A stretch of 64,000 nucleotides of DNA from Bacteroidales bacterium. Its GTDB lineage: Bacteria; Bacteroidota; Bacteroidia; Bacteroidales; Marinilabiliaceae. The stretch lies in contig JALEMI010000072.1 in assembly GCA_022768325.1 (NCBI GenBank), positions 2,318 through 66,317 on the forward strand, written 5' to 3'. Shown piece after piece: positions 3,843 through 29,134 of the stretch; position 1 is the stretch's first letter; the number at the start of each line of letters is the position of its first letter. The notes below the pieces were generated by a model. That model was not told the DNA's origin. It did not search any database and saw nothing but the letters and a program-made list of their open reading frames with translations. Both the position numbers and the translations under genes were made by a program.

Positions 3843-5012
3843 ATGATTAGGCCTTTTGCTAAAACCCTGACTGCCATAGCCCTCGCCTCTATCGCCTTTC
3901 TCACGTTCGGATGCGAAGAAGAGGATAACGAGATTCATCAGGGAAACTGGAGGAACACATATAAATATTTCCTCGGTACGCCGAGAGGTGGAGCCGTCGC
4001 GTTCCAACTCGTCGTCGACGATACCCTAAGGGCCATTGTCGGAACGGGTGCCAATATGTCCAATGTCCAAGACTTGGACCGTTTCTCCGATTTCTATATG
4101 TTCACCTACACCGACAAGGGCCTCAAGGAGTCCGTCCGCTACGATAGGCTCACCGATGAGCAGAAGGCCTCCGTCCGCTGCACTCAAGCCGTTGCCTCTC
4201 TGCCCGCCGCTGCCAGGGCTCGCAATGGTGCTGTCGCTTTCGCCCTCAACAATAAGGGCTACGTCGGCCTCGGCTACGACGGCACTAACTGCCTCAACGA
4301 TTTCTGGTGCTTCGATCCCGAGACTAACTCTTGGTCGCAAGCCCCGTCCTATTTGGGCGACGCCGTCCGCTTCGCCTTCGCGTTTGTCATCGACGGCTAT
4401 GCCTACGTAGGTGGCGGCGAAGATGCCGACAACAACATCATCGGCGATTGCTACCGCTTCGACGGGCAAAAGTGGGAACCCGTCAAGAATTGCTTCGTCC
4501 CCCGTTCCCAAGCCTCAGCGTTCGTCTGCAACGGCAAGGGCTACCTCTACGGCGGCACCAATGGCGGCAAGATCTCAACCCTCGAACGCTACGACCCTGC
4601 CACCCAAGACTGGGTCCAAATGGCGCAACTCCGCGATGCGACAGAGGAGACTTTCGACGACCAATATACCCAACTCGCCGGCTACGGTGCCACGGCTTTC
4701 GTCCTGAACAACAACACCAACGAGACCCGAGCCTACATCACGACAGGCGGCCCCAACGGCAGCGGTCAGCTCACCTGGGAATACAACCCATTCACCGACA
4801 GGTGGATTCAAAAGGCCTCTTTCGAAGGCGGCCCGCGCAAGTTCGCCGTCTCCTTCGTCCTCGATGCCAATGTCGACGGCAATACCTGGCAACAAACGGG
4901 CTTCGTCACAACGGGCGGAACGAGCGACCTCACCGTCTCAGGCTCCAACGGCAAGTTCTACGCCGATACGTGGGCTTTCCTCCCCACAGAGCAGTGGAAC
5001 GAGAGGGACTAA
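3843..5012 (+). CDS. Kelch-repeat (beta-propeller) lipoprotein, paralog 1
   Basis: It has the lipobox LTFGC-EEED. Recurring GxxGYVGLGYDG / YVGGG / GYLYGG blades are typical of Kelch/galactose-oxidase propellers. Confidence 0.75.
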   Translation: MIRPFAKTLTAIALASIAFLTFGCEEEDNEIHQGNWRNTYKYFLGTPRGGAVAFQLVVDDTLRAIVGTGANMSNVQDLDRFSDFYMFTYTDKGLKESVRYDRLTDEQKASVRCTQAVASLPAAARARNGAVAFALNNKGYVGLGYDGTNCLNDFWCFDPETNSWSQAPSYLGDAVRFAFAFVIDGYAYVGGGEDADNNIIGDCYRFDGQKWEPVKNCFVPRSQASAFVCNGKGYLYGGTNGGKISTLERYDPATQDWVQMAQLRDATEETFDDQYTQLAGYGATAFVLNNNTNETRAYITTGGPNGSGQLTWEYNPFTDRWIQKASFEGGPRKFAVSFVLDANVDGNTWQQTGFVTTGGTSDLTVSGSNGKFYADTWAFLPTEQWNERD

Positions 5013-7535: not shown

Positions 7536-8312
7536 ATGGACAGCCTCAATAAAATAAGATGCCTCATCGTCGACGACGAGTTCCCCGCACGAATCCTGCT
7601 CAAGGAGTTCATCGAGAAAGTCCCAAACCTTCAACTCGTTGCTAATTGCAAGTCGGGTCTCGAAGCCCTTCCGCTTGTACAGCAGGGTGGGGTGGACCTC
7701 ATCTTTCTCGATATTCAGATGCCCGACATCACGGGGCTCAATTTCCTTAAGATGCTCACGTCGAAGCCGCTCGTCGTCTTCACCACGGCTTATTCCGACT
7801 ATGCCATCGAGAGCTACCAGCTCGACGTCCTCGACTATCTCCTGAAGCCCTTCTCTTTCGACAGGTTCATGCAGTGCGTCGGCAAGGCCATGCAGCGAAT
7901 CGCCGAGAGCCGTGCCCATTCCGCCACATTGACAACGCCTCCTCCCGCAGCCCCGGCTGAGCCACGTGAAGCCGACCCCAACGACGGCATCCTAATCGTC
8001 AAGGCCGACCACAAGATTTTGCGAATCCGCATCGATTCCATCATCTACATCGAGGGCCTCCGCGAATACGTGGCCATCTACACCCAAGGCTCCGACAAAA
8101 TCGAGAAGGTCATCACGCTCGAGTCCCTCAGAAATCTCGAGGAGACGCTCCCCGCGTCGCTCTTCATGCGAATCCATAAGTCATATATTGTCCGTATCGA
8201 CCGCATCAAGGCCCTCTACGGTGCGCAACTCAAATTAGACGGTGTCGAGGCCTACGTCCCAATAGGCAAGTCCTACAAAGACACTGTTCAGCAAAAACTC
8301 TTCAATATCTAA
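7536..8312 (+). CDS. LytTR-family response regulator
   Basis: The receiver domain shows LIVDDE...DLIFLDIQMPD. A C-terminal LytTR-like segment follows (ILRIRIDSIIYIEGLREYVAIYT). It lies directly downstream of the kinase. Confidence 0.85.
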   Translation: MDSLNKIRCLIVDDEFPARILLKEFIEKVPNLQLVANCKSGLEALPLVQQGGVDLIFLDIQMPDITGLNFLKMLTSKPLVVFTTAYSDYAIESYQLDVLDYLLKPFSFDRFMQCVGKAMQRIAESRAHSATLTTPPPAAPAEPREADPNDGILIVKADHKILRIRIDSIIYIEGLREYVAIYTQGSDKIEKVITLESLRNLEETLPASLFMRIHKSYIVRIDRIKALYGAQLKLDGVEAYVPIGKSYKDTVQQKLFNI

Positions 8313-24197: not shown

Positions 24198-25061
24198 ATG
24201 AGGCAACTTAAAATTTCAAAGTCCATCACGAACCGTGAAAGCGCTTCGCTGGACAAGTACCTTCAAGAAATCGGTCGTGAAGAGCTCGTAAGCGTCGACG
24301 AAGAGGTAGAGCTCGCGCAACGCATTAAGCAGGGCGACCAGGCAGCTCTCGAGAAGCTGACCAAAGCAAATCTCCGTTTCGTAGTCTCCGTAGCAAAACA
24401 ATATCAGAACCAGGGACTTAGCCTCCCGGACCTCATCAATGAGGGCAACCTCGGTCTCATCAAGGCGGCCGAGAAGTTCGACGAGACCCGTGGTTTCAAG
24501 TTTATCAGCTACGCTGTGTGGTGGATTCGCCAGTCCATCCTTCAAGCTCTCGCCGAGCAAAGCCGTATCGTGCGACTCCCCCTCAACCAGGTTGGCTCGC
24601 TCAATAAGATCAACAAGGCGTACTCCAAATTCGAGCAAGAGAACGAGCGCAAGCCCTCTGCCGAGGAGCTGGCCGAGAGGCTCGACCTCCCTGCCGATAA
24701 GGTTCAGGACACGCTCCGCGTCTCTGGCCGCCACGTGTCTGTCGATGCGCCCTTCACCGATGGCGAGGAGAACAGCCTCCTCGACGTCCTCGTGAACCAG
24801 GACTCGCCAAACGCCGACCGTGGCCTCATCAGCGAGAGCCTCTCCCGCGAGATTGACCGCGCTCTGAGCACCCTCCCCGAGCGCGAGAGCGACATCGTCA
24901 AGTCCTTCTTCGGAATCGGTTGCCAAGAGATGACGCTTGAGGAGATTGGCGAGAAGTTTGGTCTCACCCGCGAACGCGTCCGTCAGATTAAGGAGAAGGC
25001 CATCCGCCGCCTCCGCCAAGGCACGCGTTGCAAGCTCCTGAAGAGCTACCTCGGCCAATAA
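24198..25061 (+). CDS. rpoD: Primary RNA polymerase sigma factor (short Bacteroidetes sigma-A form)
   Basis: The start is at [14 protein letters not shown]. Regions 2-4 are present ([49 protein letters not shown]), and region 1.1 is absent. Confidence 0.9.
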
Positions 25062-25078
25062 GGTCACCAAGATATTTT

Positions 25079-25120
25079 AAACGGAAAAAGGACGGCAGAA
25101 ATGTCGTCCTTTTTCCGTTT
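25079..25120. terminator. Bidirectional terminator hairpin between rpoD and the AAA+ ATPase gene
   Basis: A 16-bp inverted repeat, AAACGGAAAAAGGACG / CGTCCTTTTTCCGTTT, lies between the convergent genes. Confidence 0.75.
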
Positions 25121-25140
25121 AACGTGTGTGGCAAGCCCGA

Positions 25141-26466
25141 TTACAAAAACATAACGTCGTAGACGGGCAGGTACGTCACGCCCCCCTCTTGGTAAATCTG
25201 GCGTTCGTTGGAGAGTACCACGGCGCGGCGTATGTTATACTCGTCGATGTTGAGGAAACGGTCCAATGCGCTGTGCACCCTGTAATCCTTGCCAGACTTC
25301 ACCTCCACGGGTACGACGGACAGGTTCTCCTGGTCGTCAATTAGGTAGTCTACCTCGCCCAACTTCGTGTTGTCGTGGTAGAAGAGTTCATGGCCATGCG
25401 CCCTAAGCTCTTGTGCCACAACGGTCTCGTATACCGCCCCAAGGTTGACGCTTGCCGTGTCGCGCAAGATGGGCAAGATGTTGGAGCCGTACAAGGCGTT
25501 GGTGAGTATCCCGACGTCGTTGAGGTAGAGCTTCAGGAGGTTCTTGCCGCAATTTTGCACCAGAGGGTAGCTGGGCTTGCTTATCGCCTTGACCTCAAGA
25601 ACCACACCCGCCGAGATTAGGTATTCAAATTCATCGAGATAGTCCGTCATGCGCTTGCCTTGCTTGCCCTCGATCTCCTTTGCCACGACGCGCTTCTTCC
25701 TGCTCTCCATGTTTGACGGGATCATGTTGAAGATGCGCATGGTCTGCAACTTGCGCGACGAGTCGTGCTCGTACTTTGATGCGTCGTCGCCGTAGAGGTC
25801 GTGGATGTCGGTCTGTACGTGTCGGGTCTCGGCTATGTTGTGCGTCGTGAGGAACGTGTTGACGGCGTCGGGCATCCCTCCCGTGAGCAGATAGTTGCGG
25901 AAGAGCGACATGACCTTGTTGTGGATGGTCTCTGGCATGGAGGTCTGGTTGACAAAGCCCTCTCGCAAGGCGTCGACAAACGATTCGCCCACGCCGTTTG
26001 CCCATAGGAATTCCTCAAAATCCATTGGGTACATACGCTTGCGGTTGATGCTGCCAATGGGGATGGACTGCGTCTTCTTTAGCGTGACTCCCAGGAGCGA
26101 GCCGCTGGCTATGTACGTGAAGCGATGGTCCGCCATGAGGAACTTCACGAGCGTGAGCAGATGGTCGTAGGCCTGTATTTCGTCTATGAAGACGAGGGTG
26201 TTCTCCCGCTGCTTCATCCTGTTGCCGCCCACAATGCTCAGTGCGAGGTAGAAGTCGTTTACGGTCTTGGCTTCGGCAAAGACGCGGTCGCCCAGCTTGT
26301 CGGCCTCCATGTTTATCTCTATGTAGTTGGAGAACATTTGTCGGCCTACTTTTCTGATGACGTACGACTTGCCTATTTGTCGCGCTCCGTCGATGAGCAT
26401 CATTTTGTTGGAATTGCTTGACAAATAGGCTCTTATGTCGTCCTCTATCTTTCTTCTGAATGCCAT
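25141..26466 (-). CDS. AAA+ ATPase (COG1373-type, AAA_14 + DUF4143 architecture) with C-terminal PD-(D/E)xK-like motif
   Basis: Walker A is GARQIGKSY and Walker B is LVFIDEIQ. The C-terminal segment LGEVDYLIDDQENLSVVPVEVKSGKD fits a D...ExK nuclease-fold signature. Confidence 0.8.
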   Translation of the reverse strand: MAFRRKIEDDIRAYLSSNSNKMMLIDGARQIGKSYVIRKVGRQMFSNYIEINMEADKLGDRVFAEAKTVNDFYLALSIVGGNRMKQRENTLVFIDEIQAYDHLLTLVKFLMADHRFTYIASGSLLGVTLKKTQSIPIGSINRKRMYPMDFEEFLWANGVGESFVDALREGFVNQTSMPETIHNKVMSLFRNYLLTGGMPDAVNTFLTTHNIAETRHVQTDIHDLYGDDASKYEHDSSRKLQTMRIFNMIPSNMESRKKRVVAKEIEGKQGKRMTDYLDEFEYLISAGVVLEVKAISKPSYPLVQNCGKNLLKLYLNDVGILTNALYGSNILPILRDTASVNLGAVYETVVAQELRAHGHELFYHDNTKLGEVDYLIDDQENLSVVPVEVKSGKDYRVHSALDRFLNIDEYNIRRAVVLSNERQIYQEGGVTYLPVYDVMFL

Positions 26467-26470
26467 GGCT

Positions 26471-26811
26471 TACACTTTTCCGTTGTTTTGGATGCCTCAA
26501 AATTACACTTTTCCTACGTTTTTAAGTGTCTAAAACTACACTTTTCCGTCATTTTGTGGGTCTGAAACTACACTTTTCCTACGTTTTGAGGTGTCTAAAA
26601 CTACACTTTTCCGTCATTTTGTAGGGTCTGAAATTACACTTTTCCTACGTTTTGGGATGTCCAAAACTACACTTTTCCTATGTTTTTAGGTGTCCAAAAC
26701 TACATTTTTCCTATGTATAAGACCTCTGAAAACTACACTTTTCCTGCGTTTTGGGGTGTCCAAAACTACACTTTTCCTACGTTTTAGCCCCCCGAAAACT
26801 ACACTTTTCCT
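26471..26811. repeat. Tandem array of 11 x 33-bp direct repeats (consensus TACACTTTTCCTACGTTTTGRGGTGTCYAAAAC)
   Basis: The core TACACTTTTCC recurs at 26471, 26504, 26537, 26569, 26602, 26635, 26668, 26701 (TACATTTTTCC), 26734, 26767 and 26800. The units are contiguous, with no unique spacers. Confidence 0.95.
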
Positions 26812-26899
26812 TCGCGATGCTCGGTCTCTCTCGCGTCCCATGCTACATATAACGCGGCAAATGAATATATTTGCGACATCATCAAAAAAACTCAGAATC

Positions 26900-27361
26900 A
26901 TGAACGTTGGCGACAAAATTCCCGAGATTCTCGGCATAGACCAGCACGGCAACACGATAAAAAGCAGTGACTTCAAGGGGCGGAAAATCGTATTGTATTC
27001 ATACCCCAAGGCCAATACCGCCGGCTGCACGGCCGAGGCTTGCTCACTCCAGGCCCACAAAGCCGAGCTTGAGGCGCAAGGCTACGCCATCATTGGCGTA
27101 AGCAAGGACAAACAGGAAACGCAGCTGAAATTTGCCACAGCCCAAGGCCTTGAGTTCCCGCTGATTGCCGACACGTCGACCGAACTTCTCCAAACACTCG
27201 GGTGCTGGGGCGAGAAAGTGGCGTGTGGACGCAAGACAATAGGTACTATCCGCACCACATACCTCGTCAACGAGGAGGGCGTCATCGAGCGCATCATGGG
27301 GCCAAAGGAGATAAAGACCAAAATCCACGCTGAGCAAATTCTCGACGCGATAAAAAAGTAG
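26900..27361 (+). CDS. bcp: Thiol peroxidase / peroxiredoxin Bcp
   Basis: I start it at the ATG at 26900 (MNVGDKIPEILG...). The active site is YPKANTAGCTAEAC. The longer track ORF from 26690 only translates the repeat array. Confidence 0.9.
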   Translation: MNVGDKIPEILGIDQHGNTIKSSDFKGRKIVLYSYPKANTAGCTAEACSLQAHKAELEAQGYAIIGVSKDKQETQLKFATAQGLEFPLIADTSTELLQTLGCWGEKVACGRKTIGTIRTTYLVNEEGVIERIMGPKEIKTKIHAEQILDAIKK

Positions 27362-27382
27362 GTCGGTTTCTATCCAGTATTC

Positions 27383-27416
27383 AAACGCCGTTCAAATACC
27401 TTTTGAACGGCGTTTT
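27383..27416 (+). terminator. Rho-independent terminator after bcp
   Basis: The stem AAACGCCGTTCAAA / TTTGAACGGCGTTT has a TACC loop and a trailing T-run. Confidence 0.8.
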
Positions 27417-27538
27417 GCCGTACAGTGACGCAACGTGAGGCGTAATAGGCTGTTCGTAGAGTTCGCCCTTTTCCTTTGGAATATTGATGTTTTTAGTTAT
27501 GTTTGCTGTGTGTTTCATTTTTTAACCGTGCCAAACTG

Positions 27539-29134
27539 ATGAAGACATCCTGCATCCTTGCTCTCATCGCGTCAATATGCGTCGCCGAAGCGTCGGCTGT
27601 AAACCCTTATCTCCCCCTGTGGGAATTCACGCCCGACGGCGAGCCGTACGTGTTTGAAGACCCCGACAATCCGGGGCGTTATCGCGTCTATGTCTATGGC
27701 TCTCACGACATTGAGCGGACGATGTATTGTGGGCGGGACCTTGTCGTATGGTCGGCTTCGGTCGATTCGCTCGACACGTGGCGATACGATGGCGTGATAT
27801 TCACCTCTTGCGCCGACAGGGACGGGAAACCACTGTCGGCCGATGGCCTCTGCGACGTCCTCTATGCGCCCGACGTCGCCGCCCGACGTGAGGCTGACGG
27901 CCGAATGGCATACTATCTCTATCCCAACAACCAGGCATGGGGACGCAACGGCATGGTTGCCAAGAGTTACAGACCCGACGGCCCGTTTGAGGTCTGCAAC
28001 TGGAGCGAAGCCAACCCGACGGAGACGGATGGCGTCTTGCGTTTCGACCCCGCCGTCTTTGTGGACGATGACGGGCGCGTGTACGGCTATTGGGGCTTCA
28101 AACACTCATGCGCCGCGGAGCTTGACCCGGCTACAATGGCGACAGTCCGCCCTGGCACGGACATCGTGGACGGGCTAATCCCGAGTTGCGACGATGATAC
28201 GCTTTTCCGATTCTTCGAGGCGTCGTCAATGCGCAAGGTGAAAGACAAATACATATTGATATACAGCCGCGTGACGAACAATGGCGAGTGGGGGCTCCCG
28301 GCCACTAACTATACCCTCGCCTATGCCTATTCCAATTCGCCCCTCGGCCCGTTCACGTACGGCGGCACCATAATTGACGGTCGCGGCAAGGAGAGGCGGC
28401 CCGACGGCACATACGTCCCCACGGCAACATTCTACGGCAATACTCACGGAAGCATTGCCCAGATACGTGACCAATGGTACGTATTCTACCACCGCCAAGC
28501 CGATACGACGGAGTTCTCGCGTCAGGCGATGGTTGCCCCCATAACGGTCGACGTGACCGAGGGCGCGGATGGCAAGGTCGTAATCTCCGAAGCCGAATAC
28601 ACATCCGAGGGCTTCGAAATTAATGGCCTCAACCCGCTCCGCACGTACGCCGCCGGCATCGCCTGTTACTATACCCACCCCGAGCCCATGTGGCAAGAGT
28701 ACCCCAGCATGATATACCCCGGCTCGCACTCCCAGGCCGTGAGGTCGGTCTACAATGGCCATGGAGACCCATACTCGCCCGACATCAACCGCTGCCCGAT
28801 GGTCAACAACACCGACGGCTCAGTGGTCGGCTACAAATACTTCAACTTTTCTGGCACGCGTGGCGTTAAGGGTCTCAAGATGAATTTGAGCTACGTCCCG
28901 TGCGGGATAGGTGGCTCGGTCGATATATGGCTTGACGCCCCCGAAGGACAAAAAGGGCGGCGCATAGCGAGCTTCGCCGTCAAGGCCTCAGACCCACAGA
29001 CCGAAAAGACAATCAGCCTGCCAGTAGGCCAATTGGCGGGACTTGATGGCAAACACGCCATCTTCCTCGCCTTCCATGCGGACAAGCCCCGCGCCTCGCT
29101 CTGCACCCTCCTCACCGTTGGTTTTGGTGAGTAG
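27539..29134 (+). CDS. GH43-family glycoside hydrolase with C-terminal beta-sandwich (CBM-like) domain
   Basis: The start is at MKTSCILALIASICVAEASA (signal peptide). GH43-like blades are visible (YAPDV, WGFKHSCAAELD, FFEASSMRKV, GNTHGSI). Confidence 0.75.
   Translation: MKTSCILALIASICVAEASAVNPYLPLWEFTPDGEPYVFEDPDNPGRYRVYVYGSHDIERTMYCGRDLVVWSASVDSLDTWRYDGVIFTSCADRDGKPLSADGLCDVLYAPDVAARREADGRMAYYLYPNNQAWGRNGMVAKSYRPDGPFEVCNWSEANPTETDGVLRFDPAVFVDDDGRVYGYWGFKHSCAAELDPATMATVRPGTDIVDGLIPSCDDDTLFRFFEASSMRKVKDKYILIYSRVTNNGEWGLPATNYTLAYAYSNSPLGPFTYGGTIIDGRGKERRPDGTYVPTATFYGNTHGSIAQIRDQWYVFYHRQADTTEFSRQAMVAPITVDVTEGADGKVVISEAEYTSEGFEINGLNPLRTYAAGIACYYTHPEPMWQEYPSMIYPGSHSQAVRSVYNGHGDPYSPDINRCPMVNNTDGSVVGYKYFNFSGTRGVKGLKMNLSYVPCGIGGSVDIWLDAPEGQKGRRIASFAVKASDPQTEKTISLPVGQLAGLDGKHAIFLAFHADKPRASLCTLLTVGFGE

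Follow-up and report, generated by a model that had tools for sequence, protein, structure and literature searches.

The repeat array and the adjoining ATPase gene

This study examined an array of short direct repeats in a Bacteroidales bacterium of the Marinilabiliaceae (assembly GCA_022768325.1, contig JALEMI010000072.1, positions 2,318 to 66,317); this 64,000-nt stretch of DNA is referred to as the window. The array occupies positions 26471-26811 and directly precedes, on the minus strand, a gene encoding an AAA+ ATPase with a C-terminal PD-(D/E)xK nuclease domain. Read in the sense of that gene, each unit has an 11-nt box, GGAAAAGTGTA, and after it a 21-22-nt spacer. The boxes are held in a regular 33-bp phase, overlap a predicted promoter and recur upstream of homologs of the ATPase across phyla, with a box sequence that follows the ATPase clade. 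Combined, these observations suggest that the element is probably a phased, iteron-like operator array to which the ORC/Cdc6-like ATPase itself binds, most likely to regulate its own gene.

The layout had been described in an earlier reading made from the letters without database searches (the sequence-only reading), and that description was confirmed in nearly all details. The core that it reported, TACACTTTTCC on the plus strand, is present at all eleven positions given, the copy at 26701 being TACATTTTTCC, with one mismatch that had gone unmentioned. The spacing is 33 bp throughout except for one 32-bp unit, in agreement with the reported 32-33-bp period, and the gene-side box abuts the ATPase ATG (26466) as claimed, the gap being 4 nt (AGCC). 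With up to one mismatch allowed, the window contains 14 matches to the core vs. 0.67 expected, and none of 100 shuffles reached 14. Tandem Repeats Finder returned the array at period 33 with 10.4 copies (score 285) and scored periods 66 (341) and 99 (353) above it, which agrees with the suggested 65-66-bp higher-order repeat. The 66-bp periodicity arises because spacers 6/8 and 7/9 are near-identical, at 19-20 of 22 positions; the array therefore grew via duplication of two-unit blocks. The dyad GTTTT-N9-AAAAC, said to be present in most units, is found in its exact form in six of the ten spacers.

Association of the array with the ATPase family

The array and the ATPase family were found to be associated in both directions of search. 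Starting from the DNA pattern, one genome per species was scanned for two exact boxes 21-23 nt apart, yielding at least 120 loci. Among the matches listed (122 arrays), 63 are followed by a homolog of the ATPase in the same orientation (27-80% identity; 49 of them align over 300 aa or more and 14 partially), nine precede an N-terminal remnant of the ATPase only (M..RKI), three directly precede a C-terminal fragment and seven lie where the contig or locus stops within 150 nt. Apart from the orphan arrays that are weighed below, the few arrays outside these classes are ambiguous cases or have distant homologs farther downstream.

Starting from the protein, 80 metagenomic loci were collected by protein similarity alone (51-80% identity), 78 of which had enough upstream sequence, and the best self-match lag within 200 nt upstream of the start codon was determined without the use of any motif. 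The best lag was 32 or 33 bp in 76 of the 78 homolog loci. Summed over the loci, the lag score reached 1814 at 33 and 284 at 32 and was at most 63 at any other lag, and control DNA downstream of these genes gave at most 62 at all lags. The sequence-only reading had proposed asking whether copies of the array accompany homologs of this ATPase, and they do, by protein (76/78) and, among the matches listed, by DNA (63/122); a generic dispersed repeat with no relation to this gene family, one of the outcomes that reading had named as fatal to it, can be set aside. Additionally, the ATPase is the sole consistently adjacent gene, other neighbors varying among loci, and the next-closest ATPases (80% identity) occur in different gene contexts.

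Distant homologs (28-41% identity) in cultured Collinsella, Glaesserella, Vescimonas, Acinetobacter and Vibrio have GAAAAGTGT-type boxes upstream, those in Acinetobacter and Vibrio being palindromic pairs at a distance of 32 bp. Caution is needed with the phylum labels of metagenome-assembled genomes (MAGs), but the cultured isolates that carry the boxes establish the occurrence of the element across phyla.

Conserved features of the unit and placement of the promoter

Across 180 distinct units, the box and the length of the spacer alone are fixed, while the spacer sequence varies. Box spacings are 33 bp (n=182), 32 bp (n=15) or 34 bp (n=5), and the 33-bp period corresponds to about three helical turns. 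Spacer positions 13-16 and 25-28 are nearly always A/T on either strand, and T is favored two bases ahead of the next box; together with the AAAA inside the box, the two spacer tracts give three A/T tracts per unit, approximately 11 bp apart. These tracts are strand-symmetric and are therefore a feature of double-stranded DNA, not of RNA. The dyad GTTTT-N9-AAAAC is the local form of this A/T-tract pattern of the spacer. In a set of 125 units drawn from different loci, 46.4% of cells are paired in the corresponding hairpin vs. 44.2% in shuffles, and registers slid by one to three columns pair equally or better. Gene-sense RNA of the array folds unremarkably (z -1.34), the plus strand folds above shuffles (z -3.78), and an Rfam scan of 25000-28500 with E values up to 10 gave no match in the array. 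The multi-hairpin leader or noncoding RNA that the sequence-only reading had offered as one explanation was not sustained, the dyad pairing at control level and most boxes lying upstream of the predicted transcription start.

The promoter that would set this transcription start is predicted inside the array. On the minus strand, TAGTTTTG is present at three junctions of the window array and TAATTTTG at the gene-nearest junction. The latter has the form TAnnTTTG and lies within the approximately 25-40 nt upstream of the start codon in which a Bacteroidota housekeeping -7 element is expected, so that a promoter is predicted here on the basis of sequence. Bacteroidota-type loci are those in which the ATG adjoins the last box (n=28). 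In 27 of them, TAnnTTTG is made up of the final TA of the penultimate box and the first six spacer bases; the same motif is found at 5 of 57 junctions farther upstream and at 0 of 28 positions after the last box. The minus-strand match to this -7 box had been pointed out for the window, and the equivalent junction is conserved in these related loci.

In the TTGAAA-type (Firmicutes-type) loci, the box itself is the -35 hexamer, and TATAAT or TAAAAT ends the spacer 17 nt on. This TTGAAA(box)-N17-TATAAT/TAAAAT arrangement is present in 31 of 35 such loci, most often at the penultimate box, and most of the loci have GGAGG as the ribosome-binding site. Common to both architectures is one box over the core promoter, one in the short 5' untranslated region (5' UTR) and the others upstream. 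The promoter overlap combined with the boxes upstream therefore indicates an operator-array layout, not a transcribed repeat RNA. A simple terminator scan detected no terminator in or after the array. The earlier deduction that the promoter must lie inside the array is thus in line with its predicted position within the last full unit in both locus types.

Co-variation of the box with ATPase residue 272

The boxes agree within any one array and differ by ATPase clade. The types comprise GGAAAAGTGTA, TTGAAAAGTGTA, GGAAAACGCAG, TTGAAA(A/T)GTCA, GGAATAATTCC, GGAAAAAGTCC and GGAAAAAGT(A/C)AC, plus several rarer ones; all have GGAA(A/T)A or TTGAAA as the 5' half, and the 3' half is variable. In a neighbor-joining tree (130 proteins), 98 share their box type with the nearest relative that is not close; when box types were shuffled, the average was 36 and the highest count 56. 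Part of this agreement is expected, since linked inheritance alone yields some. One box recurs across several phyla, and differing boxes are found within one phylum, tracking the ATPase clade.

The 3' half of the box is accompanied by the identity of a single ATPase residue, position 272 in the numbering of the window protein. With a GTGTA half the residue is Arg in 72 of 73 proteins, including members that are approximately 30-40% identical; with GTCA it is Thr (25/26) and with TCC it is Gln (12/12). Thr or Ser accompanies GT(A/C)AC, Ser accompanies AGTGG and GTaGt, Ala accompanies AGTTGT and Lys accompanies ACGGA. A small GTGTA clade is nested within the GTCA proteins and once more carries Arg272. 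Arg272 is also found in all eight of the distant plasmid-borne homologs, of which five or six carry boxes of the GTGT type and one, from Agathobacter, does not.

The signal at residue 272 emerged only when columns invariant within the GTGTA class were sought. The 105 columns that are at least 90% conserved inside this class were compared with 11 other classes, and position 272 alone has a differing majority residue in eight of the 11, the runner-up column having four. Mutual information between the protein columns and the class of box, computed in windows, made no domain prominent, with mild enrichment at 141-160 only. Direct base readout would be expected to give this pattern, in which Arg occurs with a G and another residue takes its place once the G is altered.

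A separate observation concerns three metagenomic loci (L197-L199, upstream of the match at 1501), in which two box types, GGAAAAAGTCCC and GGAATAATTCCC, alternate in one 33-bp register; both types end in a TCCC 3' half, and residue 272 of the ATPase is Gln.

Family, model and fold of the ATPase

The AAA+ ATPase assignment made from the translation was borne out by Pfam matches to AAA_14 (E 1.5e-22) and DUF4143 (E 5.6e-21), both above cut-offs. The PADLOC profile PDLC04792 for PDC-S01 matches residues 3-441 (E 3.2e-174); with this match and its AAA_14/DUF4143 architecture, the window ATPase fits PDC-S01, a single-gene phage-defense candidate. PDC-S01, an ATPase fused to a PD-(D/E)xK domain for which experimental validation is pending, is described as the most frequent single locus among 6530 rumen genomes and the fourth commonest defense system in prokaryotes (PMC13356809, PMC12988326), and its gene family has been reported to move often between lineages (PMC12988326). 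The Walker motifs and the nuclease residues D373/E388/K390 are invariant in 30 homologs.

An AlphaFold2 model of the ATPase (pLDDT 79.8, pTM 0.83) has ORC1, ORC4 and Cdc6 as its top Foldseek matches in the PDB, including archaeal Orc1/Cdc6 on origin DNA (2qby, 2v1u). Residues 250-272 (nt ~25651-25719, minus strand) form a basic, highly conserved stretch, PSNMExKKKRxxxKxIExKxGKR, with many invariant residues, and residue 272 directly precedes the helix 274-285 of the model. The stretch may stay disordered until it meets nucleic acid or is part of the oligomer. Relaxed Pfam searches of residues 190-345 and 341-441 returned DUF4143 plus a weak UPF0102/YraN match alone.

Genomic context and copy number

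The features of the locus are collected in Table 1. The module is chromosomal and lies between a sigma-factor gene and bcp. In a sister species (bcp 91% identical), the gene order TatC-TatA-HtrA-sigma-bcp is the same, and the sigma-factor gene is separated from bcp by 162 bp, without the ATPase and without the array. The gene and its array thus form a single insertion/deletion module of approximately 1.75 kb. The sequence-only reading had the repeats filling the divergent intergenic region; this needs correction in that the region was not there beforehand, array and gene being a joint insertion absent from the sister species. Insertion boundaries or target duplications were not definable, the intergenic DNA of the sister species being unalignable to the window, and no replication, mobilization or integrase genes were found near the window ATPase, which has a housekeeping chromosomal context. 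Between the convergent sigma-factor and ATPase genes, at 25079-25120, a perfect 16-bp inverted repeat (AAACGGAAAAAGGACG ... CGTCCTTTTTCCGTTT) resembles a bidirectional terminator, and the sister species has another hairpin at the equivalent site; the simple terminator scan overlooked this inverted repeat, presumably owing to its 10-nt loop.

Table 1. Positions of the array, its boxes, the predicted promoter elements and the flanking genes in the window
Feature	Position	Strand	Remark
ATPase-nuclease gene, 441 aa	25141..26466	-	AAA_14 + DUF4143, PD-(D/E)xK C-terminus; PADLOC PDC-S01
Arg272 codon in the window ATPase	25651-25653	-	Co-varying residue
Array of 11 direct-repeat boxes GGAAAAGTGTA (gene strand)	26471..26811	-	Spacers 21-22 nt, period 32-33 bp
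Box 1, gene-proximal	26471..26481	-	4 nt from ATG; predicted in 5' UTR; likewise in 28 related loci
Predicted Bacteroidota -7 box TAATTTTG (TAnnTTTG)	26498..26505	-	End of box 2 and start of last spacer; G 31 nt before ATG
Box 2, penultimate	26504..26514	-	Terminal TA is the start of the predicted -7 promoter element
Boxes 3-11	26537..26810	-	5' of the predicted promoter
Cores of boxes 3-11	26537, 26569, 26602, 26635, 26668, 26701, 26734, 26767, 26800		One mismatch in the core at 26701
Unique segment between array and bcp	26812..26899	.	Read from sequence
bcp -7 box TATATTTG	26866-26873	+	Inferred from Bacteroidota promoter consensus
bcp/peroxiredoxin (AhpC-TSA)	26900..27361	+	Neighbor, outside the element

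Copy number was compared across 126 non-redundant loci, which mostly have three (55), four (41) or five (19) units; at least three boxes are present in 119. The 11 units of the window are the largest number among them, L079 (at least eight units) aside. Two conspecific contigs span the array (ATPase 98% identical) and have 11 units each, one of them with five substitutions in the spacers and zero in the boxes. Other near-identical groups are also constant, with five units in L168/171/173-175/177 and four in L155/157/158. The expansion to 11 boxes, which proceeded via two-unit block duplication, appears fixed in the window species. Three conspecific short-read assemblies (L127, L128, L129) stop within the array, two to seven units from the ATG; these contig breaks occur because the repeat causes an assembly artifact.

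Variant, truncated and orphan arrays

Several loci depart from the direct-repeat layout. In the Acinetobacter towneri (L216) and Vibrio coralliilyticus (L217) plasmids, whose homologs are 28% identical, the half-site AAAAGTGTA forms palindromes (TACACTTTTATGCGCATAAAAGTGTA); two or three of these, 32 bp apart, replace the direct repeats 50-120 nt 5' of the ATPase start. In the Vescimonas fastidiosa plasmid (L210), three boxes in the opposite orientation (GTGTCCACTTTTGAAAAA-like, 42-bp spacing) lie upstream of the direct boxes, approximately 130-240 nt 5' of the ATPase start.

Three loci (L004, L090 and L105, with arrays at ~1859-1902, 3966-4009 and 7552-7595) have in common their left flank, a pair of boxes and the truncated start of the ATPase, MLFRKIKS*, and differ in their downstream genes, which include RhuM in L090 and GmrSD_N/DUF262 in L105. 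In L069, the array and MLYRKIQ are fused to an unrelated open reading frame with a signal peptide. From their sequence, these four loci look like a gene-replacement hotspot just 3' of the ATPase start codon.

Orphan arrays (e.g., L029, L100, L102/L118, L016, L101, L117) have two to four exact boxes and stand before genes such as methylglyoxal synthase-like, miaA-like, Vsr, Macro-domain and serine recombinase genes. The miaA case was found in two different MAGs, with TAnnTTTG 14 nt past the last box. Such arrays may be relics or trans-regulated targets. Additionally, L009 (7205-7248) and L059 (7883-7926) have a second short array downstream of an intact ATPase that has its own upstream array; in L009 this second array precedes a GIY-YIG/T5orf172-like gene, as annotated by eye from its N-terminus.

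A probable operator array bound by the ATPase, and its alternatives

Of the explanations offered in the sequence-only reading, the iteron-like protein-binding array is the one retained, since the array is family-linked across phyla, strictly phased, promoter-overlapping and co-varying with an ATPase residue. We infer that the ATPase is the binder, that DNA and not RNA is the target and that repression is the effect. In the proposed mechanism, the ORC/Cdc6-like AAA+ ATPase would bind the boxes in a sequence-specific manner, with residue 272 helping to read the 3' half of the box. Binding would be cooperative, with one protomer per 33-bp unit. Occupancy of the two promoter-proximal boxes would set, and most probably repress, expression of the ATPase's own, potentially toxic, nuclease gene, and the additional upstream boxes would contribute cooperativity.

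Several results weigh against this reading. The agreement between residue 272 and the box is imperfect: the CGCA and AAATG box classes retain Arg272 (in the CGCA class the adjacent Gly270 is changed to Trp), and an Agathobacter homolog has Arg272 yet a different box. The co-variation is also exposed to shared ancestry, as it comprises about eight switches, some of which may be dependent. In the protein, residue 272 ends a low-confidence stretch of the model (250-272, confidence <50), the structural matches to ORC proteins are weak (E 3e-5 to 3e-4, TM 0.25-0.33), no DNA-binding domain was found in the ATPase with Pfam and no winged helix by sequence, and PDB profile and sequence searches gave no solved relative. 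Among the matches listed, approximately 30 of the 122 arrays are orphans without an adjacent ATPase; if functional, these would need regulation in trans. Finally, it is box position that points to repression rather than activation, and the last box could be bound as a transcript instead of as DNA.

A different use of the same binding, in which the boxes are the cognate recognition sequence and the array is a DNA 'antidote' or docking platform that holds the ATPase-nuclease inactive and polymerized on the host's own chromosome, at one protomer per 33 bp, until it is freed or redirected by infection, is considered unlikely. If it were true, PDC-S01 immunity would be a DNA-sequence-guided self/non-self or sequestration mechanism, and its specificity code (residue 272 vs. 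the box 3' half) would have diversified among clades. It is also rather improbable that the element acts at the RNA level, with transcribed repeats serving as a ToxI-like antidote or as a leader bound by the ATPase-nuclease. The repeats do stand directly upstream of a nuclease-containing candidate defense gene in its sense orientation, the last box is in the predicted 5' UTR, two more TAnnTTTG junctions of the window, 201 and 234 nt upstream, could start multi-unit transcripts, and the plus strand folds above shuffles as described. However, the predicted promoter lies in the last unit in both phyla, which would leave most boxes untranscribed, and no terminator was found between the repeats and the gene. 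Spacers are variable, the hairpin hardly exceeds its shuffled and slid controls, gene-sense RNA has ordinary stability, the A/T tracts are strand-symmetric, Rfam has no match in the array, and the protein is not a ToxN/AbiQ-type RNase.

The binder could be another protein than the ATPase, for instance a global regulator of the host or a protein encoded by a phage, as the binding role of the ATPase comes from sequence rather than direct evidence and the orphan arrays front unrelated genes (miaA, Vsr, GmrSD, RhuM, Macro). This is judged very unlikely, given that the box follows the ATPase clade both across and within phyla, that the ATPase is the sole consistent neighbor and that residue 272 tracks the box. 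An equally low probability is assigned to true iterons at a replication origin or to a recombination or mobility site, used for homing or cassette exchange, in which case the ORC-like ATPase-nuclease and its repeats would make up a minimal selfish module. The ORC/Cdc6-like fold, the insertion or deletion of gene and array as one unit, the reported frequent transfer of the gene family (PMC12988326) and the L004/L090/L105 and L069 loci, which keep the array and the first ATPase codons before different genes, are all compatible with such a module. Yet the gene stands alone in a housekeeping chromosomal context with no replication, mobilization or integrase genes nearby, its insertion boundaries and target duplications are not definable, and the boxes hold fixed positions relative to the promoter and the start codon, which regulation predicts. 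The box pair was also found in just 4 of 2.9 million viral contigs, a count on which a phage origin of the array was rejected as well.

Two further explanations turn on how the repeats multiplied. The upstream boxes might be functionless relics left when slippage or unequal crossing-over duplicated the promoter unit, with the proximal unit alone of consequence, and the clear recent block duplications in the window array and a copy number of 2 to 11 between lineages fit this account. It is highly improbable all the same: boxes are identical while spacers diverge, within arrays and across phyla, three or more boxes are the rule among the non-redundant loci, and upstream units have lost the -7/-10 element yet kept the box, the opposite of what neutral decay predicts. 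A phase-variation switch of the ATPase gene based on a variable-number tandem repeat, the remaining option of the sequence-only reading, has hardly any probability left. The tandem repeat does abut the start codon, and short-read assemblies break inside it (L127-L129); nevertheless, both spanning conspecific contigs have 11 units and differ by substitutions only, unit number is constant in the other sampled species groups, and the gain or loss of upstream units would shift neither promoter nor reading frame. Polymorphism among close strains, the mark of phase-variable tandem repeats, was not seen in this small sample. Each of the five rivals (RNA element, other binder, origin or mobility site, neutral duplication and copy-number switch) is contradicted by one or more of the results.

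Comparison with known systems

The proposed operator array bound by the ATPase finds its closest counterparts in the iterons of plasmid replicons and their Rep proteins (R6K pi, F RepE, P1 RepA). As in the array, these are helically phased direct repeats adjoining the gene of the presumed binder, their sites overlap the binder's promoter and lead to autoregulation, and copy number varies among replicons. Plasmid iterons are 17-22 bp long, usually with 22-bp spacing, whereas the array has 11 conserved nt in a 33-bp unit; it also belongs to a single chromosomal gene without origin features, and that gene encodes an AAA+ ATPase-PD-(D/E)xK nuclease and not a Rep protein. Replication-origin iterons do not fit as an identity for the element: the phasing agrees, and the origin context and Rep do not (chromosomal insertion, AAA_14/DUF4143 protein, no replicon genes), nothing pointing to a role in replication. 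The archaeal ORB and mini-ORB elements by orc1/cdc6 are similar in that short repeated boxes lie directly 5' of an ORC/Cdc6-like AAA+ gene. The array is unlike them in its regular 33-bp spacing, the nuclease domain, the bacterial hosts, the weak structural similarity and the lack of origin evidence. The array would work like iterons with Rep or like ORB boxes and belongs to neither family.

Autoregulation of the BrxR/CapW type or of toxin-antitoxin systems shares with the array a potentially harmful defense gene that appears to be checked by sites in its own promoter. In those systems, a separate small HTH or WYL regulator reads one or two palindromes, whereas here the effector itself is the apparent reader and the sites are long, phased direct repeats. 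MalT boxes and STAND regulators offer an instance of an ATP-dependent oligomerizing regulator that acts on short, asymmetric, phased direct repeats upstream of a promoter. MalT differs in belonging to another protein family, in having no nuclease domain and in activating other operons rather than its own promoter.

The ToxI repeats of ToxIN resemble the array as tandem repeats of approximately 33-36 nt directly upstream, and in the sense, of a defense gene. ToxI has conserved full-length units, an upstream promoter, a terminator before toxN and pseudoknots, all of which the array is without. A type III toxin-antitoxin (ToxIN-like) system was rejected on the promoter in the last unit, the missing terminator, the unconserved hairpin and the different protein family. 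The statement that the repeats are not a CRISPR array was upheld, the repeat being 11 nt with no cas gene among the neighbors, where CRISPR repeats measure 23-55 bp, alternate with unique spacers of similar length and usually come with cas genes; a CRISPR-like reading as an 11-nt repeat with a 22-nt spacer was also discarded, as the spacers are paralogous (up to 20/22 identical) and have a fixed A/T pattern.

Implications for the PDC-S01 family

The remark in the sequence-only reading that no described element has this sequence is consistent with literature searches on DUF4143, COG1373, PDC-S01 and the box sequence, which turned up none. For an abundant candidate such as PDC-S01, whose mechanism has so far been lacking, the array and residue 272 provide the first concrete handle. 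On the operator reading, the ATPase should recognize nucleic acid in a sequence-specific manner, with the box as its likely recognition sequence. PDC-S01 loci with such arrays are likely to be split or under-counted often in metagenome assemblies, and the array could be used as a cis-signature for annotating members of the family and their remnants.

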